Assembly (NCBI RefSeq): GCF_015706575.1
Contig: NW_024037076.1
Location: forward strand, 22,669,286-22,733,285
Source of the DNA: Patiria miniata
Lineage: Eukaryota
Direction of reading: 5' to 3'
DNA length: 64,000 nucleotides
Each line of letters opens with the position of its first letter. Position 1 is the stretch's first letter. The notes beneath the pieces are model-generated. The model was given only the letters and a program-made list of their open reading frames with translations. It was not told where the DNA came from and made no database searches. The translations under genes were made by a program, and so were the position numbers. Of this stretch, positions 2,534 through 16,732 are shown one piece after another.

Positions 2534-2799
2534 CTGTGGAGAAGATGAACATGATAACGAACAGTTATGTATCATAACAATGAGAAAAAAATATGTACAT
2601 GTAGTTGTAGCCATATGATATTTTATAGACTCGTTTTCATTCATGAACTACTGCACATCTGAAACTTTAAGAATTAGCTTTAAATGCCCAATGATTGTAG
2701 CTCCTTTCACCAATGCAGTTAAAAAATATCAAAGATGCTACCCAAACTTTATATTTTCCCCTTAAACATTTAATAAATTGTGTCTGATGTTATACTCAC

Positions 2800-2989
2800 C
2801 CTTCATAGTTGGTCTTTTTGTACAAGATAAAGTGTTCGTGCTCTAGTGAGTCCACACACCACGCCTTTTGGTCATCTGGTCTGAAGAATCTCCCATAGCA
2901 ACGGACGTTCAGATCAGCTCCATTCTCAATCAAAAATTTGATCATACTGATGTTCTCATTCACAATGGCTTTGTGTAGACATGTTTCAC
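2800..2989 (-). CDS. TRPV: TRPV-like channel exon (ankyrin repeats)
   Basis: Translates GETCLHKAIVNENISMIKFLIENGADLNVRCYGRFFRPDDQKAWCVDSLEHEHFILYKKTNYEG, comparable to the TRPV segment GQTALHIAVVNQN..LL..GA.V.AR..G.FF. Confidence 0.75.
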
Positions 2990-3355
2990 CTTAGTAAAAT
3001 GTGAAAGAAAGTGGCATTAAAGATCTGTGATACTGGCTTGCAAAACTTCTACAGAACAGTTCTACATCTGAAAAACACTTTTGTTAGCACAGCATTTAAA
3101 GATTTAAACCCAATTGTTTTGAGGGGGTGCAGTTGTATAAATGGTTTAAGTATTTTTACTTACATACCATTTTCAAATTTGTTTTAGTAAGTATGCATAA
3201 TTGAGGAAACTCAAAAATCAAGTTCATTACAGTTAATAGGAGGGCAACTAACAGCCCTTTGAAAGCACCGCTGTTGCACACAGACAGTAAAGGTGTTTAA
3301 ATGATAGCCAATCCCCTTTGGGTGGATTTTGGTAAGCATAATCCATCATTTTTAC

Positions 3356-5000: not shown

Positions 5001-5541
5001 GTAAGCAAACTTGTGTGGACGACCATCGGGGTTATCATAATGTAATCGTATTCCGCCGTGAATATAATTGATTGATTGAAGTATTACACCTGTATTGGAT
5101 TGTCGTATTTACCATGTCGGTGGCCATGGTGATAGTATGAAATACAATTTTCACAATCACCGTCGGGCGAGGTGATATCGTTCTTGTTATCTTAAATAAT
5201 AAATGAAATAACTATTGAAATGAATATACATGTATATATTTCGTAATTTCCTGACTGGTGATAAATTATAGCTCCAATGTGATAATGAATATGAATAATG
5301 CAATTATGTGCTAAAATTTGATGTTCAGAAACTTAATATTCATACATGCATTTTTTCCCCAGTTGAACAGCAAGCTGTGTTTAAAGATGTTTTAAACTGA
5401 TTGGAAATTAAAAATTTGTATAGTCAAACTCTCCTTTATAATTTTTATCAATATTTAAAATTTGTTCTATTTCAATTTGATTTTAAGTTATGTATGCATA
5501 TTTTTTACGCTTATTATTTTATTTATGCTCATTTTCTATAG

Positions 5542-5617
5542 GTACCGAGGATACATAGAGCAGTATAAATATCATGTTGGTGACACATATGGCAATGCAA
5601 CAAACAAGTTATCAGAG
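5542..5617 (+). CDS. FAM166/CIMIP2-like exon 2
   Basis: Acceptor tctatag|. Translates GYRGYIEQYKYHVGDTYGNATNKLSE. The splice junction creates the motif LPGYRGYI. Donor |gtaaaa. Confidence 0.65.
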
Positions 5618-5913
5618 GTAAAATATGAAAATGGCTCGTTATAAAATTATATTTATTAAATAGTAAATATTTATTTTGATGGATAACAAGCTGCTGCAAA
5701 ACTTGAATGACCTGAAATGTAAAAGATGAGAAGGCCTAATCAGCAAAATAAGTCAACTTTTTCACCCAGGCAGTCTCATTCATTAACATATTTGTCCCAG
5801 AAACAAAATGTTGGGCTCTCCTGAATTTTATGACTTCTACTAAGGGAATCTTTACAAAATCCTTAAAACTAGCACCATAAAACTCAAACTTTTGCTCTCT
5901 TTCATCTAAACAG

Positions 5914-6103
5914 AAATGGAGGACCAGGCATCCAGCATATACAGCATCTCCACAGAACTACTTTGATTCCAAGACAACCTTTGTCGGTACAGGGCTTAGT
6001 GGTCCGGATGATGTAGATGGAAGTGGCACAAGACGAGATCTCAAACTTCCCAAGTCAACTGGAGACAATAAACTGACGGAGAAAATGGTTCCTGGATACA
6101 CAG
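5914..6103 (+). CDS. FAM166/CIMIP2-like exon 3
   Basis: Translates KWRTRHPAYTASPQNYFDSKTTFVGTGLSGPDDVDGSGTRRDLKLPKSTGDNKLTEKMVPGYTG. The motif MVPGYTG spans the junction into the next exon. Confidence 0.7.
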
Positions 6104-6806
6104 GTATCAGGCGCAGTTCTAGAGCCAATATAATTTTTTTTTGGGGGGGGGGGGGGCGCTAGCAAGGTGGATCCAGATTTTTTTTCAGGGAGGCATGCTG
6201 AAATGCAGTCATATGGACTCGTGCCATATTTTCAGTGGGGAGCGCTGATAATATCCTACAATCAGACACACTATATTAACTAAAAGTGTACAAATGCACC
6301 CTTCTCATTTAGGGGGAGACCGTTCCCATGTAGGTCAAATTCTTATATTTTGCTAGTGCATTTTTTTTTTTTATGGAATTTTTTTGTGGGGGGGGGGGGG
6401 GCTAGACAAAATTTTGCCTAGCCCTCCCGTAGAAAAGTTCTGAAGCTCCCACATCTCCCCTCCCCTAAAAATGCCTTCATGTCAATATTTCAACCGAATA
6501 ATCTTATTTCCTAAAAATGGCCAGAATTCTAGAAGCTGTGAAAGGGTACAAAAATCAGTAATGAACAGTTTGTTTCCTTGCAAAACATTATCCCCTCTCC
6601 AATAATTTTCTAAAAAATCATAGAATCCTCAAATTATTTACCTAGACTACAAAGACACAATTTTCTTTTGGTTCTCTTTCAATAAAAATGGATTAAAATT
6701 TCTCTAGTTTAATTGAGCCACTAATGCTGTTAGTCCAATTCTGTAATCCTTCCACTCAGTTGTAAACGCTTTATTTCTCTAAATCTTAATTGTTTTCCCG
6801 TCACAG

Positions 6807-7034
6807 GCTATATTCCCAGAATGCCGTTCAAGTTTGGCAACACCTACAAGGAAGATTGTGATGTCTGCATCGATGACTTCATGAGAAACACAAAAGAACA
6901 TGACACTAAGGTGCACACACTACGGAAGGCGCAAACGCAGATTAAACCACTGAGGCCAATGACAGATGAAGGAACAGTCATCAATAGATTGAATCAGTAT
7001 AGGGATAGACATCCAACCTCCAAAATACTTCTAG
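6807..7034 (+). CDS. FAM166/CIMIP2-like exon 4
   Basis: Translates (G)YIPRMPFKFGNTYKEDCDVCIDDFMRNTKEHDTKVHTLRKAQTQIKPLRPMTDEGTVINRLNQYRDRHPTSKILL. This completes PGYTGYIPR, the FAM166 family signature. Confidence 0.7.
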
Positions 7035-7136
7035 GTTAGTCATTATTGTTACTATTCAAATTCACGAAAAGTGAGCCAGGGCTAGCCTGGGTCAGGTTTA
7101 GTTCATGAGTTGTAATTCAAATTTATACCTCAAATT

Positions 7137-7490
7137 AGGGGTGTGCATTTACGGTTAGTGCGTGAACCGGTTACCCGATTGAAAACAAAAAAATGGTTAC
7201 CTAGGTACCCGTTAAAGAAACCCAACCCCAAAATTCAAATCATGGAATTTGCTGTTCAGATTGTTCATAAAGGTCCACATGATGATACTACCACATTGGT
7301 GTGACAAGAGAGCTGGTGTGGACAGTGAGCTTTATAGAGCCATGTAGCCTGGTTTTCATTTTGAAACTCCCCCACAAATGACATTCAAGTTGGTTACGCG
7401 TAACCGATCTCATAATCTGGAACCAGTTCCTGACATCAACAGTCGGGTACTCAGGTACCCGGTTCCGATGCACAGCCCTACCTCAATTAA
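7137..7490. mobile_element. MITE-like element with ~40-bp imperfect terminal inverted repeats, in FAM166-like intron 4
   Basis: Left end GGGGTGTGCATTTACGGTTAGTGCGTGAACCGGTTACCCG. Right end CGGGTACTCAGGTACCCGGTTCCGATGCACAGCCCTACC, an approximate reverse complement of the left end. Confidence 0.45.
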
Positions 7491-7855
7491 TTAAATCACA
7501 AAGAACAGTTGTCTGTTCTCTAGCAGACTCTGTGCACAGAGGGCCGTCACTGAAGACAGGTTTTGTTATTTAAATTCAGTGACAATGGAAGTACAAAAGT
7601 GTCTACTCATGTACTCATGTGTACCCCAGAGAAGCAAAGACCTGTCCTCAGTGAGGGCGCTCAGTGCAAGGAGTCTATTGTTGTTGTTTCTTTATTATAT
7701 TTTGAGTAAGTACAATGTATGTACATGTATTGGTAAAGCCATGATTTGACAAATGTTTTGGAAATTCTGCCTGATGCAGAATGGAGCATACCCAAATTCA
7801 CAAGTTTAGTGATACCGATATTATGATCTTTTGTTTTCTATCTTTTTTTCGTCAG

Positions 7856-8036
7856 AGGACAAACGTGAATCCAGAGAAGCCCCAATTCCGGGTTACGATG
7901 GTTTCATCCCTAGACAAGGCGTATCAGAGCTCGGCCTAGGAGCTCGCTATCATACCATCTGTGATAAGTCTCTCAATACCTTCTATGATGAGACAGACAG
8001 GCATGCAGAGAGGATTGGACGAGCCTATGTACCAAA
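7856..8036 (+). CDS. FAM166/CIMIP2-like exon 5
   Basis: Translates EDKRESREAPIPGYDGFIPRQGVSELGLGARYHTICDKSLNTFYDETDRHAERIGRAYVPK. A second IPGYDGFIP motif is present. Confidence 0.7.
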
Positions 8037-8315
8037 GTAAGTGTAGGAGTTAGAAAGTTACTGTGTTACAATGAGGAAGCAAGTAGAATCTAACATTCAC
8101 CAAATTTTTTAATAATTTTTATTCAGTCCAATAATATTAACATTTTATTTCTAATAAGTAATATTTCCTATCTATAGGAATATTACTCACTTAACACCTT
8201 AAAGGTAGTTTTTTTGGAAAGGCAAGATCCTTTTGTTTATCAACGGCAAAAAGAGCACCAATCATTTTGTGTCAATTGTTAAAGTCTTTGCCTTCTTCCA
8301 TCTTGTTTTTGCTAG

Positions 8316-9965: not shown

Positions 9966-10882
9966 TCTTACCATTGCACTCATAAAAATTCATTAGTGTA
10001 TGCTATTTTGTAGACCATAGTTTACAGCAATACTTTTGATACTAATGTGCATTGATGTGGTTTTCCAAAATGTGCTACATGAAAAATTAGATTAAACACA
10101 AAGTTGATTGTTGATAAACAATAAACATAATATAAACCCAAAAGAACTACATAAAAGCACTGCATAAAGTAATGACAAAATCAGAATGAAGAAAAATGCT
10201 CATTAATGCAGACAAATCGAGGTGTAAAAAATCATGTAAATATTTTGTAAATTACTTTTCTAGATTGAATCCATAATGAAAAGCTTTTTCTTCCAAACAA
10301 TGACAAATTAAGCAGCACAACTTTATTAATACAATGTAGTATTAAGCTTGTCCTACAAAAAATAAGCCAAAAAGTGTAAAAGTATGACTGAAAAATATGA
10401 GCTTCTTGCAGATGAATACATTATATTTTTATATTTACAATTTCAAATGTTCACAACATAGAAAAAATAGTGTATTAGGGTTGCTTTAGATGAAGAAAAA
10501 CTACGAAAAGTCTAAATTCGGTACCTGTTGATATCAATATCATACAAGTTTATGGTATACATATGTACTTTTTACTTTTTGTTACACTCTGTGATATTAT
10601 ACAATTTTTAATCAGAGCAAGGTTATTTTGACGTAAAGTTTCTTCCAAAAATGAATTCAGCTAATTTATCATTACCACAACTTCAAATGGACTGTGAGCA
10701 AATACGAGCTGTATCTAGATCAAAAGTACCACTTTTGCAAAGTTCAGAATTTTTTATGCTTAATTTTGAAGAATAAAGTTTAAATGTCATCACTCCTAGA
10801 TTCTGTGTAAGTTATTGTACAAATAAAAGTGTGAATCTAATGATGGTACGATTTCAGTCTTGATTTGATTAGGTTCATGTTT

Positions 10883-11146
10883 CTATTTCTTGTCCTTGGG
10901 TACCCTTCCCATCAAATAGAACTCTTTATTGGGTCTCATATCAGTAAGATGAGCCATGCGATTAGACATTGCAAAAAATGCAGCTATAGCTCCAATGTCC
11001 CAAGCATCTTCACGATCCAAGCCGTGTGCTTCGAGTTTCTTGAAATGTTCCTCGGTGATTGTCTCTGACTTGCAGACAGCGATTGCAAACTCAACAATCG
11101 CTCGTTGTCTTGGATCCAACTCTGCACACTCCCAATTGGCAGCAAC
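10883..11146 (-). CDS. AhpD/carboxymuconolactone-decarboxylase (CMD) family 'peroxidase-related' protein, last exon
   Basis: Translates VAANWECAELDPRQRAIVEFAIAVCKSETITEEHFKKLEAHGLDREDAWDIGAIAAFFAMSNRMAHLTDMRPNKEFYLMGRVPKDKK*. This is a second CMD half-domain. Acceptor ctcag|GTTGCT. Confidence 0.75.
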   Translation of the reverse strand, partial: VAANWECAELDPRQRAIVEFAIAVCKSETITEEHFKKLEAHGLDREDAWDIGAIAAFFAMSNRMAHLTDMRPNKEFYLMGRVPKDKK

Positions 11147-11541
11147 CTGAGCAATATGGAGATTAGCTTCAACTTTAATACAGACCTGCTCTTGTCAAGA
11201 TTTCCACATACCGAGCATTTTTAAAGGCTCTGATTTATACCAAGTTATCATGACGCAGTGGACATACTTGGATCCTGAATTTTCTTACAGGAGTAACCAA
11301 ACATAGATCCGTAACACAGAAAAAACAAGAGTTATGTTCCTTCATACGTGTAGTGCAGATTTTTATTGATATTTTTCTAATAAAATCTACTGGAAAAAAA
11401 ATGGACTTATTGTCAGCCACTACATGTAGGTTTCACTTTCAGCAAATAAAGGGTCTTTTTTGTTTTAGTAATTGAACACCCATTCCAACTTAAACTTTAC
11501 CAATCTAAGAAAGTATTAATAATTTTTGAAGTTGTTCTTAC

Positions 11542-11772
11542 CTGGTCAGCTAGGGTAGGATTCTTGGAGTAGATCCTGAACAGTGCCGAGTGTGATATAA
11601 CGCAATACAAGCAGTTATTGACGGAGCTGGTTGCCACAACAATCATCTCTTTATCTGCTTTAGTGAGGGATCCTGTCTCTTTGGCCATGAGTGCATCATA
11701 ATACATGAAGAAGGCACGGAATTCATCAGGCCGATGGGCGAGTGCTTGGAAGACATTTGGTACAAAGCCAGA
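11542..11772 (-). CDS. AhpD/CMD-family protein, middle exon with catalytic CxxCxxxH motif
   Basis: Translates SGFVPNVFQALAHRPDEFRAFFMYYDALMAKETGSLTKADKEMIVVATSSVNNCLYCVISHSALFRIYSKNPTLADQ. CLYCVISH is the AhpD-core C-x-x-C-x-x-S/x-H signature. Boundaries tttcag| and cag|gtaaga. Confidence 0.75.
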
Positions 11773-12083
11773 CTGAAAGGAAGATATTCATGTAAAATGT
11801 TAACAACAACCCTTGAATGTGTTGGAAACCAGTTCACCCAGAAGTTAGACTGGTCTCTGCCAAACTTTCCTGTACTTAAAACAGGGCAACAATTTTACTA
11901 TTGAAGAGGAAATGTAATTTTTCTTTTGGAAAAAGAACTTGAAGACATTAAAATTGGGAGCATTTCAAGGGGAACTAAGGCCAGGACCTTGGAAACGAAA
12001 CTCCAAATCTGATGTTTACATTATATTTTAAGTTTACATTTAAAAATTTATCTGGGATACATGAAGATTATTAATCCCAATAC

Positions 12084-12230
12084 CTTCTCTGCTACTTCAT
12101 TGATGAGATCTTGCATATCTTGTGGGAGTTCATCCTGATTAGGAACAGGATAACGACTGATTGGATACTCTGCTTCACTGCAATACCCTCGGTTTACAAT
12201 GGCAACAGGCTTTGCAAAGTTTAGGGATAC
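12084..12230 (-). CDS. AhpD/CMD-family protein, upstream internal exon (start-codon exon not resolved)
   Basis: Acceptor ttttacag|GTATCC, donor gagaag|gtattg. Translates VSLNFAKPVAIVNRGYCSEAEYPISRYPVPNQDELPQDMQDLINEVAEK in 147 nt. The ATG-bearing exon lies further upstream and was not identified. Confidence 0.6.
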
Positions 12231-12663
12231 CTGTAAAATACAAAATCAGGTCGTAAGCAAACTTTGATGAAAGCATACAGTCCAATTTATCAAGTTTGGT
12301 TAGTTTTAGTTATTTTAAGCTGAGGTGAGGGGCCTACTTGTTTCATTATTTGCAAGTGAAACAAAAATAACTTGAAACTCAAAACCAATTTAAGATTGGC
12401 AGGAAGCACCTGCATGATTTTATACAACACTGCCATCACAGCACAGGGAATGATTTGGAAAGAATTCCATACATGGACAACTTGCAAGTGTTTTCTCAGT
12501 AAATGCTTAAATATTTTCTCAGCTAAATTTGAATTTTTAGCACATGTTATTTCTTTCTGATGGTTGATAGGTCATTGCAGGGAAAAATTAGTGATGGCCA
12601 TATGGAATTCTTTCCCAAATGTGTTCCCTCCGTCTAGTCTAACTAGCTGACTCGTTAGTTGTT

Positions 12664-14470
12664 AAAGGGAATATACATCATTTGCTTTTGCTGTAATTTT
12701 CAAAAATGGATGGATTTGGGGGGTTGGTAATATATAGCAAATATTGTTACACTGACTTTTTTGACGTTTTGGGTTCGTAGATGCTTGAAAACCAGGAAAA
12801 ACAATATTGTTCCTGTAGTCTGGTTCCCTGACTCCATTTAAGATGAAACGGAGCAATTTATAGACATTGGGGAATTGTAAGGTTAGGGAACCAGTCTAGC
12901 TGGCTTGTACCTGTTTATAGGTGTGTAATCGATTTCAAACAAATGCGGACTAACTAAATATGGTCAATTGGGGCCAGAATTTGAAAAAAGCCAGTTTTTT
13001 CGAACGGTGGTCGGCCGACCAGCGTTGGAAATTGATACAAAAATACCACTTTTCTTAAAAATGACAGTAGGCCCTACACCAGATGCCATGATTTTACAGG
13101 ATGCTTAAGACTGTCATTCACTAACAGTCCGGCAAGGTATTTCGAAATAATTTGGTAGTTTTATTTTTGATGTTTGCAAATGTTGTATTTTCTCTTTAAA
13201 GGGAATATACATCATTTGCTTTGGCTGTAATTTTCAGAAATGGATGGAATTGGGGGGTTGGAAATATATAGCAAATATAGTTACACTGACTTTTTTGAGG
13301 TTTTGGGTTCAAAAATGCTATAAAAACCAAGAAAAACAATCATTTTCCTGTAGTCTGGTTCCCTGACTCCATTTAAGAAGAAACAGAGCAGTTTACATAC
13401 ATTGGGGAATTGTAAGGTCAGGAAACCAGTCTAGCTGGCTTGTACCCGTTCATAGGTGTGTAATCGATTGCAAACAAGTGCGATGGTCAACTGGGGCCAG
13501 TATTTGAAAAAAAGCCAGTTTTTTCCAACGCTGATCGGCCGATCAGCGTACTCCTAGAACTATGAGGCTCCACGTAGTGGAGCCTCATAGGTTCAGAAGC
13601 CCGCAAAATTGTTGTCAGCACAAAACACTAATTAAGTACAAAAACGTCCATCCCAAGCAGGCCGTTTTCCACAGAACCGCTGCACAGTTTGCCCCTAAAC
13701 TCCATACAATACCTCATGACATACTCACGTTATGTGCACCCAACAAACATCGGTGGATTCTGTCTGTTTTTCGGCAAAAATGATGAAAAATATGCCCTTT
13801 CTGCACTGAGCCAACCTAACACTTGAAACGAGCACGCGTGCAGAATGATCGCAGTTATTTTCGGTTCGATCGCTCGGAGCGCGCCGCGGGGGGTATGGTG
13901 TAGGAGCGGAACGATAGTATGCACATGCGTACAAGTGCAAGTACGTACCCCCCGCGGCGCGCTCCGAGCGATCGAACCGAAAATAACTGCGATCATTCTG
14001 CACGCGTGCTCGTTTCAAGTGTTAGGTTGGCTCAGTGCGGAAAGGGCATATTTTTCATCATTTTTGCCGAAAAACAGACAGAATCCACCGATGTTTGTTG
14101 GGTGCACATAACGTGAGTATGTCATGAGGTATTGTATGGAGTTTAGGGGCAAACTGTGCAGCGGTTCTGTGGAAAACGGCCTGCTTGGGATGGACGTTTT
14201 TGTACTTAATTAGTGTTTTGTGCTGACAACAATTTTGCGGGCTTCTGAACCTATGAGGCTCCACTACGTGGAGCCTCATAGTTCTAGGAGTACGATCAGC
14301 GTTGGAAATTGATACAAAAATACCACTTTTCTTGAAAATGACAGTATACCAGGTGCCGTGATTTTACAGGATGCTTTACACTGTCATTCACTAACAGTCC
14401 AGCAAGGTATTTCAAAATGATTTGGTAGTTTTATTTTTTGATGTTTGCAAATGTTGTATTTTCCCTTTAA
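12664..14470. repeat. Two tandem copies of a ~534-bp unit, the second interrupted by the foldback element
   Basis: Copy 1 spans 12664-13197. Copy 2 spans 13198-13548 and resumes at 14293-14470. Identity is about 90% (GGGAATATACATCATTTGCTTT...TGTATTTTC[T/C]CTTTAAA). Confidence 0.7.
13549..14292. mobile_element. Foldback (long perfect palindrome) element with 9-bp TSD CGATCAGCG
   Basis: A 744-bp element begins TACTCCTAGAACTATGAGGCTCCAC and ends GTGGAGCCTCATAGTTCTAGGAGTA. The arms (~345 bp) are near-perfect reverse complements around a ~54-bp central loop near 13900-13950. CGATCAGCG sits on both flanks (13540-13548 and 14293-14301). The unduplicated copy 1 of the host repeat shows the empty site. 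Confidence 0.75.
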
Positions 14471-15324
14471 ATGCCATCGACTAGCTGTTATGATCATGCC
14501 GCGCCTTTGCTTTGCACGCCCACTGTTGACTGTGTCTGCTGCCCCCTATCGACAACCAATTATTATATTAAGGCCAAATTTTAGCTCATTTTTTAATTGC
14601 TGAAATTCAACTACTAAAATAGCCTTGCATGCGATATTCATTTATCGAAACTACCTTCGGCACCCAGCTGATGTTTTGTCCATTTTTACAGTGGTTAATT
14701 GATGACAAGACCGACAACTGAGACTTGGAATTCCTGCACAGCTGACGGCAAAAAATTGAGAACATGTGAGCCGCCATGTTGATTTTGGTCTGGTTTCCTA
14801 CTCATTCTTTGGTGTAGCCTTTAGGTACGTTTTATGTCAGTGGATCCAGACTGTAACATTCGTCAACATTTTGCACGCGATCACCGCGCACCGGACCGAA
14901 ATGATGGCGAGTTCTCTCTTTTGCAAGATTATGCCGAGGGGTTTGAAGGTAAAGAAGCCCATTGTGCATGTTTGCAATATTTATGTGGATTTTCCGGAAT
15001 ATCTTTACTTTCGATGTTTTCTATCATCGAAAACTGCTCTGTCGATATGTCTGTATGTCTGTCTTACTTGTCTGTCCGCACGTAATGTGTTTTATTTCTC
15101 CATGGTCTGACCGTCTGACATGTCAGATCAGTGTGTCAGTCCATGGAGGAATAAGAACACACCCTCCATGGTCAGTCTCAGCATAGGCCCTAGAGCAAGG
15201 AACTCGGAATATCATTTGATTTTAAGATTTTCAGTGTGCCATGTGTGTAGAAACTGCTTTAGTAGTAAGACTACTATCATGACTATGGGGGAAATGATCC
15301 ATTGTTTTTTTTTTTAGTAGATTC

Positions 15325-16732
15325 TAGGCCTGTGCGACTAGTGTGACTAGTCGCCTAGTCGCCAATACTAAAAAGTATTGGTAGTCGGGACTATCAATTT
15401 CTGAATAGTCGACTAGTCGTGTGACGTGACTAGTCGCGACTACTGAAAGTAGTCGTGACTACTGAAAGTAGTCGTGACCATTGAAATTCACTAGTCACCC
15501 ACACCTGGAAGGGGGGTCAGACAAGTCGACCGTTGAGACAACTCGACTCGGGACAAGTCGACCGTTGAGACAACTCGACCGTTGAGACAACTCGACCGTA
15601 TGTGCGATAAATGGAAAGACAAGTCGACCGTTGAGACAAGTCGACCGTTAAGACAAGTCGCCGCCTCGCATGTTTTTGTTGCTAGTTTTGGGGATAGTCG
15701 CGGGGATTTTGACGGCGGCTGATCGCCGTTTGGGAGTGATGACACATGAGTTGTTTTTTTGTTGTTGGATATAACCATGATAACAGAGCCGATATAGCGC
15801 AGCCGGGCCTGTGCGCGCACTTATCCCCGGTCAGCGTCGGCCGTACCGTGCACGGTGACATCGTTTATGCCGGGCCTGTGCGCCCACTTGCCGCCCCGGT
15901 CGACGTGCCCGCGTGCCGGGCCGGGCCCGGTCCTCGCTGGCGGGGCGCGCCGGCCCGACGCGACGGCCACCGGATTGGAACGCCCTCTGTGCATCAAGTA
16001 TGCCCGCGCCGCGTCCGGGATCGCAACATTTTCCCGCTCCACGTGTATACATTTCCGCTAAGTCGAGCTGTCTCAACGGGCGAGTTGTCCCGAGTCGAGT
16101 TGTCTCAACGGGCGACTTGTCTCAACGGTCGACTTGTCCCGAGTCGAGTTGTCTCAACGGTCGACTTGTCTGACATCCTGAAAATGTGTGATCCAAGTAC
16201 ATGTAATTAAAAACGGCCCAATAAAGATGCTTAAGGAAGAAAGATTTAATAGTAACATTAAACAATGACAGAACATGAATGCCAAGTTCAGAGGCAATGC
16301 ATATTTTCTAATGTGATCACTCACAACTGAGTAAATCGGGGTTATCCCTACAAAGTACAATGAATGATGTAGTACTCACATGACACATGTGATTCCGTCA
16401 TTACTTTGCAAGCGTACATGTATCAAAGGCTTTATGCTTTTGTAGTACGCAGACTTTACTTTACACGATATTTAATTATAATAATCAATTCTGTCAAAAT
16501 ACCCCTAAACAATATGAAACCGTCTGATCACGACAAACTGACCTCCTTGTTTTTTTCTGGCCCACATGCTCATTGCACATGCGCAGACCGATATATTAGA
16601 TGTACTGCTGCACTGATTAGAGGTGTTTCTTGATAAATAAATAATGTGTTACTAGTCGCGACTAGTCCACTAGTCGTGACTATTTATCGCAACTAGTCGC
16701 GACTATTGAAATTCACTAGTCGCCCAGGCCTA
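15325..16732. mobile_element. hAT-like non-autonomous DNA transposon (8-bp TSD GTAGATTC)
   Basis: Terminal inverted repeats TAGGCCTGTGCGACTAGTG...CACTAGTCGCCCAGGCCTA. GTAGATTC flanks both ends (15317-15324 and 16733-16740). The subterminal region carries GACTAGTCG repeats. Internal tandem GACAAGTCGACCGTTGAGACAA repeats (15520-15660) recur inverted at 16060-16180. A GC-rich core spans 15780-16060. There is no transposase ORF. Confidence 0.65.

Follow-up and report, generated by a model that had tools for sequence, protein, structure and literature searches.

A four-exon gene of the sea star Patiria miniata encodes a conserved AhpD-like protein with a putative mitochondrial presequence

The window analysed here, a stretch of 64,000 nucleotides from Patiria miniata, contains a real and intact gene of the carboxymuconolactone decarboxylase (CMD) superfamily that is under strong purifying selection. 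The encoded protein is a member of an already annotated family and can be classified by a routine domain search. Judged from the sequence, its catalytic motif is intact, and the enzyme probably works in mitochondria, a location that we infer from an N-terminal extension.

Structure of the CMD gene

The gene is located on the minus strand. Three exons had been recognized in the initial annotation (12230-12084, 11772-11542 and 11146-10883), which together form one 213-codon open reading frame, the other two frames of the joined exons being stop-rich. Each of the three is preceded by a polypyrimidine-AG acceptor, and the two internal ones are followed by GT donors. These boundaries and the single frame were retained, but the number of coding exons is four. 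The exon with the start codon, which had been reported as missing, is located at 14777-14655, 2.4 kb upstream and across a repeat-filled intron. Spliced mapping and tblastn showed that the four-exon translation is 100% identical to the 254-aa RefSeq protein of P. miniata (LOC119719984, here P0001).

Coding exon 1 (14655..14777, minus strand, 123 nt, codons 1-41), which was placed by exact peptide matching of P0001, spliced mapping and tblastn (100%), starts with the ATG at 14777-14775 and carries most of the presequence-like extension. Its GT donor was read from the sequence at 14654-14653. Intron 1 (12231..14654, minus strand, 2424 nt, phase 0, GT...AG ends) is packed with repeats; the repeat search revealed two copies of a direct repeat of approximately 535 bp, along with an inverted repeat of 356 nt (13540-13895 / 13946-14301) with 99% complementarity. 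Coding exon 2 (12084..12230, minus strand, 147 nt, codons 42-90) covers the last part of the extension and the first part of the conserved domain (PISRYPVP...). Its extension part (12180..12230, minus strand) encodes, together with exon 1, residues 1-58, a putative mitochondrial presequence. The core of the CMD/AhpD domain, including E132, is encoded by coding exon 3 (11542..11772, minus strand, 231 nt, codons 91-167), and coding exon 4 (10883..11146, minus strand, 264 nt, codons 168-254 and the stop codon TAG at 10885-10883) encodes the C-terminal helical part of the TIGR01926 domain.

Comparison of Patiria with Asterias gave a pN of 0.083 and a pS of 0.78, and comparison with coral a pN of 0.19 and a pS of 0.78, both indicative of purifying selection. 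The gene is flanked on the plus strand by a CMI2B-like (FAM166B-type)/SPMIP5 gene (5459-8037), detected with Pfam on six-frame ORFs, and by an Iso_dh gene (IDH3 beta/gamma-like) that was detected from about 17.5 kb onwards (Pfam Iso_dh, E = 4e-44), in agreement with the FAM166-like and IDH3B genes named in the initial annotation. A regex search for the IDH catalytic motif GD[IL]xSD gave no match. The IDH3 neighbour carries GNIVDNL in its place, and its assignment as a beta/gamma-type subunit was settled by the Pfam Iso_dh match. A candidate first coding exon of this gene is located at 14901..14948 on the plus strand (MMASSLFCKIMPRGLK, followed by GTAAG); it would be divergent from the CMD gene and 123 bp away from the ATG of the latter.

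Contamination by bacterial DNA, an artefact of the assembly or a pseudogene can practically be dismissed as explanations of the gene. The one observation in favour of contamination is the approximately 62% identity to bacterial proteins. On the other hand, there are three spliceosomal introns, two of which are common to five other animals, animal genes lie on both flanks in conserved order, the GC content is animal-like, the open reading frame is intact with a pN/pS of about 0.1, and a 28.6-Mb scaffold of P. miniata carries an annotation of the identical protein. The earlier view that this is a host gene and not contamination is thus upheld by introns shared across animals and by the conserved animal flanks.

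Family assignment, fold and active site

The assignment to a bacterial-type 'peroxidase-related enzyme' with an AhpD core, made beforehand from the sequence, was confirmed by profile searches. Both models suggested for the joined exons scored above their cut-offs: Pfam CMD PF02627 with 47.3 bits (cut-off 23, E = 2.2e-12) and NCBIfam TIGR01926 (peroxidase-related enzyme) with 200.7 bits (cut-off 81.8, E = 1.6e-59) over the complete profile (1-178 of 178). The same holds for the AhpD core domain model TIGR00778 (44.4 bits, cut-off 27.8). A second CMD half-domain, previously proposed for the last exon, gave no separate Pfam hit; this region belongs to the single TIGR01926 domain, of which it forms the C-terminal part. 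Among proteins of known structure, the bacterial 2prr was matched at E = 1.1e-75 with approximately 62% identity and Deinococcus radiodurans DR1765 (6k40) at 8e-31. In the AlphaFold model, residues 60-254 have pLDDT values above 90 and residues 1-59 values below 50. The 60-254 part of the model superimposes on 2prr with a TM score of 0.96 and an rmsd of 1.1 A, and TM scores for 3c1l, 2pfx, 2oyo and 6k40 range from 0.91 to 0.94 (6k40, 0.94).

The AhpD signature Glu-x11-Cys-x-x-Cys-x3-His is present as E132, C144, C147 and H151 (E-x11-C-x-Y-C-x3-H). The CLYCVISH stretch (C144-L-Y146-C147-V-I-S-H151) that had been noticed in the middle of the three exons was read from the sequence at 11590..11613 on the minus strand, in exon 3. 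In an alignment of 27 animal and bacterial sequences (A1), E132, C144, Y146 and H151 are invariant, and C147 is a cysteine in all rows except three placental ones. A census of the motif among the matches of the searches that listed the orthologs gave 200 sequences with CxxC, six with CxxS, five with CxxN and three that were unreadable.

A putative targeting presequence

The N-terminal extension of the Patiria protein (residues 1-58) contains seven Arg/Lys residues, no Asp or Glu occurs before residue 60, and the segment is predicted to be disordered. Extensions of this kind are found in 164 animal orthologs. Their median length is 49.5 aa, and the first 30 residues contain 15.4% Arg+Lys and 1.5% Asp+Glu (net charge +4.2), compared with 14.4% Asp+Glu in the mature part. 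A crude census detected simple MPP-site motifs in 65-86 of these 164 extensions, a share too low to discriminate. Bacterial homologs begin at about PISRYP and have fewer than 15 residues where the animal extension sits. Composition and absence from bacterial homologs make the extension a putative presequence for import into mitochondria. The supplements of a zebrafish mitochondrial localization study contain no entry for si:ch211-175m2.5, the zebrafish-type name that occurs among the fish orthologs.

Orthologs and shared gene structure in animals

The family had been described as missing in vertebrates and of patchy occurrence among animals, which is not the case. Orthologs with 60-87% identity are present in echinoderms (all five classes), hemichordates, amphioxus, molluscs and corals, and every vertebrate class is represented at 60-73% identity, with sequences from cartilaginous and bony fishes, amphibians, reptiles, birds, a monotreme, marsupials and placentals. 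The placental orthologs come from 13 genera (elephant, aardvark, slow loris, pika, bat, squirrels, hamster, vole, Peromyscus, gerbil, desman and marmot). The best hits are conserved metazoan proteins, but all of them are of unknown function, and not the ordinary proteins of known function that had been considered as a counter-case at the outset. Literature searches for the animal family (si:ch211-175m2.5, CMD in metazoa or vertebrates, zebrafish AhpD-like, TIGR01926) yielded no paper, nor does the family appear in a sestrin review of 2024.

Gene structure is likewise shared. Six species from five phyla (coral, chiton, Patiria, Asterias, amphioxus and fish) have two phase-0 introns in common, whose positions are identical; the 3' boundary of exon 2 (...EVAEK|) coincides with the phase-0 intron position common to coral, chiton, fish, amphioxus and Asterias. 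The 231-nt exon 3 has the same length in Asterias and amphioxus, and in fish and chiton its counterpart is split into 100 and 131 nt by a common phase-1 intron. An intronless RNA-type contig of 1.6 kb encodes a full-length coral-like ortholog. Linkage of the CMD gene with an Iso_dh gene is common to sea star, amphioxus and chiton, that is to three phyla, and in amphioxus the same head-to-head CMD/IDH3 pair is found, also with a short first exon. Synteny with CMI2B/SPMIP5 is common to Patiria and Asterias.

The orthologs across animals, the shared introns and the IDH3-type linkage together indicate that the CMD gene is ancient in animals and has been inherited vertically. A lineage-restricted redox enzyme, as suggested initially, or a recent transfer was rejected, given orthologs from corals to mammals and shared intron positions.

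Origin of the animal gene

A bacterial origin by ancient transfer is possible and compatible with the distances and the tree. In its specific form, a Burkholderiales-type proteobacterium would have donated the gene to a stem animal prior to the divergence of cnidarians and bilaterians, introns and targeting sequence having been acquired later; we give this scenario somewhat less than an even chance. Animal proteins are 59-64% identical to proteins of Burkholderiales and other proteobacteria, and the mean corrected distance between animals and bacteria (0.62) is close to that among animals (0.53), compared with 1.00 between animals and protists. The phylogeny proposed in the initial annotation was calculated as a neighbour-joining (NJ) tree, in which animals stand apart from the protist clade (together in < 1% of bootstraps) but the backbone is weakly supported: animal monophyly received 41% and the sister relation to particular bacteria 9-13%. 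This tree is distance-based, comprises 192 columns and does not contain sponges, ctenophores, placozoans, choanoflagellates or fungi. Slow evolution of the CMD protein could mimic recency. A separate transfer of a TIGR01926 gene from a proteobacterium to a protist has been published (PMC5447177).

According to the other scenario, the gene is an old eukaryotic one, for instance from the mitochondrial ancestor, which animals and a few protists have retained, which was lost many times elsewhere and which owes its bacterial look to slow evolution. Non-animal homologs with presequence-like N-termini, namely from the foraminiferan Reticulomyxa filosa (245 aa), a EukProt entry and Tara/BOEU eukaryote-type metagenome contigs, speak for this, as does the presence of alphaproteobacteria (Afipia, Sphingomonadaceae, Beijerinckiaceae) among the close bacterial relatives. 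However, these relatives are mostly Burkholderiales rather than alphaproteobacteria, the distribution among non-animal eukaryotes is very sparse in the lists obtained, and the failure of animals and protists to cluster in the NJ tree points the same way. Retention from an early eukaryote is, in our estimate, less likely than not. Cluster look-ups for homologs with presequences yielded mainly metagenome or SRA proteins, and one cluster with a long N-terminus (P0216) proved to be bacterial, judged by its neighbouring genes. As a candidate for ancient gene transfer from a bacterium to an animal, the gene is a clean one, in which the gain of introns and of the presequence can be dated.

Proposed function

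We infer location, redox activity, substrate and reductant from the sequence, and on balance we favour a role of the Patiria protein as a mitochondrial CxxC thiol-disulfide oxidoreductase or peroxidase. The 254-aa precursor, consisting of a presequence of about 58 aa and a complete TIGR01926 AhpD-like domain, would be imported into mitochondria and the presequence cut off. The all-helical domain would then act as a thiol-disulfide oxidoreductase via the C144-x-x-C147 pair, with E132 and H151 as a putative proton relay as in bacterial AhpD. Peroxides might be reduced directly, or reducing equivalents might be handed to a thiol peroxidase, and a mitochondrial dithiol donor, either thioredoxin 2 or protein-bound dihydrolipoamide, may serve for re-reduction. 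According to the passage in PMC8945050 that cites Zhao et al. (2020), D. radiodurans lacking DR1765 is sensitive to H2O2, and rescue requires the CxxC cysteines. A protist TIGR01926 gene is highly expressed (3,986 TPM) and was listed with the stress-response genes in a study of expression at high salt (PMC5447177). Enzymatic data for an animal member were not found in our literature searches.

Within 2.5 kb around the 80 closest bacterial homologs, no ORF contained the AhpC active-site motif. Recurring neighbours were of the housekeeping type, namely an upstream MsbA-like ABC transporter (31 of 80), an RNase E/G-like gene (13 of 80) and a DNA polymerase III alpha-like gene (8 of 80), with no redox partner gene among the neighbours of these 80 homologs. 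Since the closest bacterial genes are not located beside ahpC, a peroxiredoxin partner for the Patiria protein is a guess.

It is unlikely, in our view, that the protein is non-redox or non-mitochondrial, for example a decarboxylase of the gamma-carboxymuconolactone type, a Bmp8-like thiol-dependent dehalogenase or a sestrin-like cytosolic sensor. To our knowledge, animals lack the beta-ketoadipate pathway, which counts against a decarboxylase, and no PcaC decarboxylase model was matched among the NCBIfam hits at E <= 0.01. The CMD superfamily does include decarboxylases, the dehalogenase Bmp8 and sestrins, and Bmp8 (6ohi) as well as a weak signal of the sestrin PA26 appeared among the distant matches. 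However, Bmp8 is only about 21% identical (TM 0.58), and the sestrin model PF04636 scored 16.7 bits, short of its cut-off (29.4). The C-x-Y-x4-H spacing of the Patiria protein equals that of C125/Y127/H132 in sestrin-2 (PMC11429811). Placental orthologs without the second cysteine have been retained, and therefore some function may need no dithiol. Outside placentals, by contrast, the full CxxC and the Glu/His relay are invariant.

The redox reading may be extended to a joint one, which we offer as a long shot. Animals would have obtained an AhpD-type thiol peroxidase/reductase module for their mitochondria from proteobacteria before cnidarians and bilaterians diverged. This module would be re-reduced by lipoyl groups of the 2-oxoacid dehydrogenase complexes, as in the mycobacterial Lpd-DlaT-AhpD-AhpC system, and co-regulated with IDH3, an enzyme of the TCA cycle, via an ancient bidirectional promoter. 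It might have escaped notice because CxxC has degraded to CxxN/S in placentals and model mammals apparently lack the gene. If the protein is indeed an AhpD-like oxidoreductase of mitochondria, the peroxide and thiol metabolism of animal mitochondria has a further component of bacterial type, one that studies of human and mouse would miss. Embryos of zebrafish, Xenopus, chicken or sea star would allow a direct test of such a component.

Comparison with known systems

In fold and in the E-x11-C-x-Y-C-x3-H motif, the Patiria protein resembles the TIGR01926 structures (2prr of Cupriavidus/Ralstonia, 3c1l, 2pfx and 2oyo). These bacterial structural-genomics entries are likewise without an assigned function. 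Unlike the bacterial proteins, the animal one is encoded by a gene with three introns and has a presequence-like extension of about 58 aa. Among relatives for which a phenotype is known, DR1765 is the nearest; it shares the subfamily fold and the CxxC at 34% identity but is bacterial and cytosolic.

AhpD of Mycobacterium tuberculosis (Rv2429; PDB 1knc) is an AhpC reductase coupled to lipoamide. It belongs to the same CMD superfamily and has the same Glu-x11-Cys-x-x-Cys-x3-His signature, with C-x-H-C where the Patiria motif is C-x-Y-C, a Tyr in place of the His. Foldseek matched 1knc to the Patiria protein at E = 0.1 with approximately 10% identity and a TM score of 0.40-0.57, and no AhpD equivalog model was found among the NCBIfam hits at E <= 0.01. 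Canonical AhpD genes are linked to ahpC, whereas the Patiria gene is flanked in the window by CMI2B/SPMIP5-like and IDH3-like genes. The Patiria protein is not a canonical AhpD of the M. tuberculosis type. The putative CMD structures 2q0t and 2qeu were matched at E of about 0.2. Sestrins (PF04636), the AhpD-fold proteins already known from animals, have a distantly AhpD-like fold and, in the case of SESN2, the Cys/Tyr/His spacing in common with the Patiria protein (PMC11429811). The latter is a single small domain without a DDYDY hinge, whereas sestrins consist of a fused double domain.

Gene structure of the CMD gene

The minus strand of 10400-13400 was read for splice borders and the exons were joined by script. 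Three exons with AG/GT borders had been proposed in the initial annotation, and both approaches bore them out. Coding exons 2 (12230-12084, 147 nt) and 3 (11772-11542, 231 nt) are preceded by AG and followed by GT, whereas coding exon 4 (11146-10883, 264 nt) is preceded by AG and ends with the stop codon TAG at 10885-10883. A pyrimidine-rich tract and AG precede each of them, and across the 642 nt of joined exons a single frame only is free of stops. The CLYCVISH motif, also claimed earlier, is encoded at 11613-11590 (minus strand) within the 231-nt exon.

Searching protein collections returned the 254-aa 'uncharacterized protein LOC119719984' of Patiria miniata from a 28.6-Mb scaffold, which is identical across the full query. 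Spliced mapping rebuilt this entire protein; it uses four exons (123, 147, 231 and 264 nt), and every intron is in phase 0. By this mapping the start exon, which the initial annotation had failed to locate, lies at 14777-14655 (minus strand), encodes the 41 N-terminal residues and ends at a GT donor. It was missed by eye because intron 1 (12231-14654, minus strand) is full of repeats, namely a direct repeat of approximately 535 bp in two copies (12662-12947 and 13196-13482, 91-92% identical) and a 356-nt inverted repeat (13540-13895 / 13946-14301, 99% complementary, 50-nt spacer). The inverted repeat resembles a foldback or MITE-type element that inserted recently.

No second copy of the CMD gene was found within the window. 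On another scaffold, P. miniata LOC119742814 encodes a partial paralog (P0004) that is 96% identical across exons 2-4, carries an unrelated lysine-rich new N-terminus and is truncated past ...EEHFKKL. Probably this paralog arose by recent partial duplication or is a chimeric gene.

Family assignment, fold and active site

The translation of exons 2-4 exceeded the cut-offs of Pfam CMD (47.3 bits vs 23), of NCBIfam TIGR01926 'peroxidase-related enzyme' (200.7 bits vs 81.8, all 178 model positions covered) and of the AhpD core-domain model TIGR00778 (44.4 bits vs 27.8). Among solved structures the top match was 2prr from Cupriavidus/Ralstonia ('AhpD core: uncharacterized peroxidase-related protein', E = 1.1e-75). 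Taken for themselves, the gene model and the membership of the protein in Pfam CMD and TIGR01926 are practically certain.

An AlphaFold model calculated from a 27-sequence alignment is entirely alpha-helical with pLDDT >90 for residues 60-254, and has pLDDT <50 for residues 1-59. Foldseek placed the model on 2prr (TM 0.96, rmsd 1.1 A) and on DR1765 of Deinococcus radiodurans (6k40, TM 0.94), with 3c1l, 2oyo and 2pfx about equally close. Streptococcal AhpD, the debrominase Bmp8 and PA0269 were more remote matches, and M. tuberculosis AhpD matched weakly (E = 0.1). E132, C144, Y146 and H151 are invariant in the 27-sequence alignment; E132, C144, C147 and H151 form the AhpD signature Glu-x11-Cys-x-x-Cys-x3-His. 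The protein was rejected as a canonical AhpD, as a PcaC decarboxylase and as a sestrin, since for each of these one defining property (a score or a linkage) was checked and did not hold.

N-terminal extension

Bacterial homologs start a few residues ahead of the PISRYP motif. Among the matches listed in two homolog searches, at least 164 proteins have an extension before this motif, with a median of 49.5 residues. In these 164 proteins the first 30 residues contain 15.4% Arg+Lys and 1.5% Asp+Glu (mean net charge +4.2), compared with 14.4% Asp+Glu in the mature part, and in 77% of them the first 25 positions are free of acidic residues. The Patiria protein has seven basic and no acidic residues ahead of position 60. 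Compositional criteria for mitochondrial matrix presequences are well established, and the composition of the extension is that of a putative presequence of this kind. Simple MPP-type cleavage motifs, counted crudely, occur in 65-86 of the 164 extensions, a share that does not discriminate.

Distribution and vertical inheritance

Orthologs were collected from the matches listed in one search with the Patiria protein and a second one seeded by the Tasmanian devil ortholog. The first yielded, at 60-87% identity, sequences from other sea stars, a sea urchin, a sea cucumber and a crinoid, two hemichordates, amphioxus, the corals Montipora, Porites and Orbicella, molluscs (a chiton, a bivalve and gastropods), many fishes (where the gene bears the name of the zebrafish locus, si:ch211-175m2.5), a chimaera, frogs, lizards, birds, echidna and marsupials. 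The second added sharks, lungfish, caecilians, salamanders, turtles, crocodilians and at least 13 placental genera, including elephant, aardvark, slow loris, pika, horseshoe bat, squirrels, marmot, hamster, Peromyscus, vole, gerbil and desman. The family had been described as absent from vertebrates and patchy in animals. The former is contradicted by the orthologs in fishes, amphibians, reptiles, birds and mammals, and the latter does not apply within deuterostomes, where echinoderms, hemichordates, amphioxus and vertebrates are all represented.

All ten placental orthologs with a readable motif (proteins P0126, P0132, P0153, P0167, P0169, P0172, P0175, P0178, P0180 and P0204) have CxxN or CxxS instead of CxxC; CxxC is retained in marsupials, echidna, birds, fishes and every invertebrate examined. 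Placentals still keep the Cys-x-Tyr-x4-His spacing, which is the same as in the active site of sestrin-2 (PMC11429811). No human or mouse ortholog was among the 120 matches listed in the Tasmanian devil-seeded search, an absence that is at most suggestive of a loss of the gene in both species. Judged from these sequences, the family may have taken on a different function in placentals, and some placentals may have lost it. A snail paralog from Biomphalaria glabrata (P0218, 384 aa) has an extra N-terminal region of approximately 190 aa fused to the AhpD-like domain; one member of its cluster is called a BED-type domain protein by its source.

Exons were mapped at the genomic loci of five orthologs. 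Two phase-0 introns in the conserved domain (after ...EVxEK and after ...LADQ) occupy identical alignment positions in all six species compared, i.e. Patiria, Asterias, the coral Porites, the fish Chanos, Branchiostoma and the chiton Liolophura. In the fish and the chiton an extra phase-1 intron cuts the 231-nt exon into 100 and 131 nt. Synonymous sites are saturated (pS 0.78-0.90), and pN amounts to 0.08 in the comparison with Asterias and to 0.16-0.22 in those with other phyla; selection on the gene is strongly purifying. Assembly of a sequencing run gave a 1.6-kb contig that encodes a full-length coral-like ortholog without introns, and the orthologs are therefore taken to be transcribed and spliced. 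The common introns and the gene order are evidence that the gene is old and vertically inherited in animals. Together with purifying selection they exclude contamination, a pseudogene and a recent transfer, in line with the earlier view of a host gene.

Origin of the gene

A prokaryote scan with one genome per species gave at least 587 loci. The best 80 of these are 50-64% identical over the best segment and come mostly from Burkholderiales (Cupriavidus, Piscinibacter, Caballeronia, Paraburkholderia), with a few alphaproteobacteria, Myxococcota and others. Outside animals, homologs with presequence-like leaders occur in Reticulomyxa filosa, in a EukProt entry and in metagenome contigs of eukaryote type. 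A neighbour-joining tree with bootstrapping gave the protists as a group with 100% support. In the best tree, animals and two invertebrate-like sequences formed another, with 41% support on a weak backbone.

Animals and protists united in <1% of replicates, and mean distances were 0.53 between animals, 0.62 from animals to the nearest bacteria and 1.00 from animals to protists. By these values descent from the first eukaryotes is the less likely of two readings, and acquisition by a stem animal from a proteobacterium is favoured. The weak backbone, and a tree that leaves out early-branching animals and unicellular relatives, limit the latter reading, which we hold tentatively, at slightly less than an even chance. 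The gene is a good candidate for an ancient bacterial acquisition.

Neighbouring genes and a possible shared promoter

A Pfam search on concatenated six-frame ORFs of the flanks showed that the neighbours had been correctly described as FAM166-like and IDH3B genes. A ciliary microtubule-inner-protein gene of the CMI2B-like (FAM166B-type) and SPMIP5 kind (5459-8037, plus strand) is convergent with the CMD gene, as CMI2B/SPMIP5 is in Asterias rubens. Ankyrin-repeat exons at 2799-3296 (minus strand) possibly belong to a TRP-type channel gene, because the gene at the corresponding place in the chiton, upstream of the CMD gene, has Ank and Ion_trans domains. An isocitrate dehydrogenase gene (Iso_dh, E = 4e-44) starts from about 17.5 kb on the plus strand. 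Its peptides lack the catalytic GDILSD, and presumably it encodes an IDH3 beta/gamma subunit; they are 62-82% identical to the Iso_dh genes of amphioxus and chiton.

A short ORF, MMASSLFCKIMPRGLK, at 14901-14948 (plus strand) is followed by GTAAG and could plausibly serve as the first exon of the IDH3 gene. If so, the start codons of the CMD and IDH3 genes would lie head to head, 123 bp apart. In amphioxus (locus L004, 9440-10001) an Iso_dh gene is likewise head to head with the CMD gene, and 407 bp separate the two CDS starts; in the chiton it lies 4 kb downstream. The divergent pair in sea star (with the candidate exon) and amphioxus, and the proximity in chiton, suggest an ancient common promoter of the CMD gene and the mitochondrial TCA-cycle IDH3 gene.

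In the putative first IDH3 intron, two arrays of a 17-nt tandem unit (15519-15660 and 16062-16171), reverse complements of one another, flank a core of approximately 60% GC in a region of 37% GC; this element looks transposon-like. In vertebrates the CMD gene adjoins a WD40 gene (Chanos chanos locus L003; names of proteins P0085 and P0195), and automatic annotations sometimes mis-merge it with 'DCAF10' (echidna, mandarin duck). The DCAF10 vicinity is where human and mouse remnants would be sought.

Proposed function and comparison with known systems

An intact, selected gene encodes a TIGR01926 AhpD-like domain with a complete Cys-x-x-Cys/Glu/His site and a presequence-like leader. RefSeq and UniRef already list the identical sequence as an uncharacterised CMD-domain protein; detection of the gene is routine, and it is unstudied. 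No published study of the animal CMD/TIGR01926 family was found in a literature search, and a 2024 review on sestrin ancestry treats bacterial AhpD-like proteins without the animal family. The protein is a conserved orphan enzyme that studies of human and mouse would miss.

We propose that the precursor would be imported into mitochondria and act there as a dithiol oxidoreductase or peroxidase, with Trx2 or lipoyl proteins as candidate reductants. As a whole, this proposal appears fairly probable. A TIGR01926 gene of a protist is very highly expressed (3,986 TPM), and a high-salt expression study lists it with its stress-response genes (PMC5447177). According to PMC8945050, which summarises Bryk 2002, Koshkin 2003 and Zhao 2020, deletion of DR1765 renders D. 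radiodurans sensitive to H2O2, and rescue needs the cysteines of the CxxC motif; DR1765 is a far nearer relative than M. tuberculosis AhpD, the AhpC reductase that is coupled to lipoamide.
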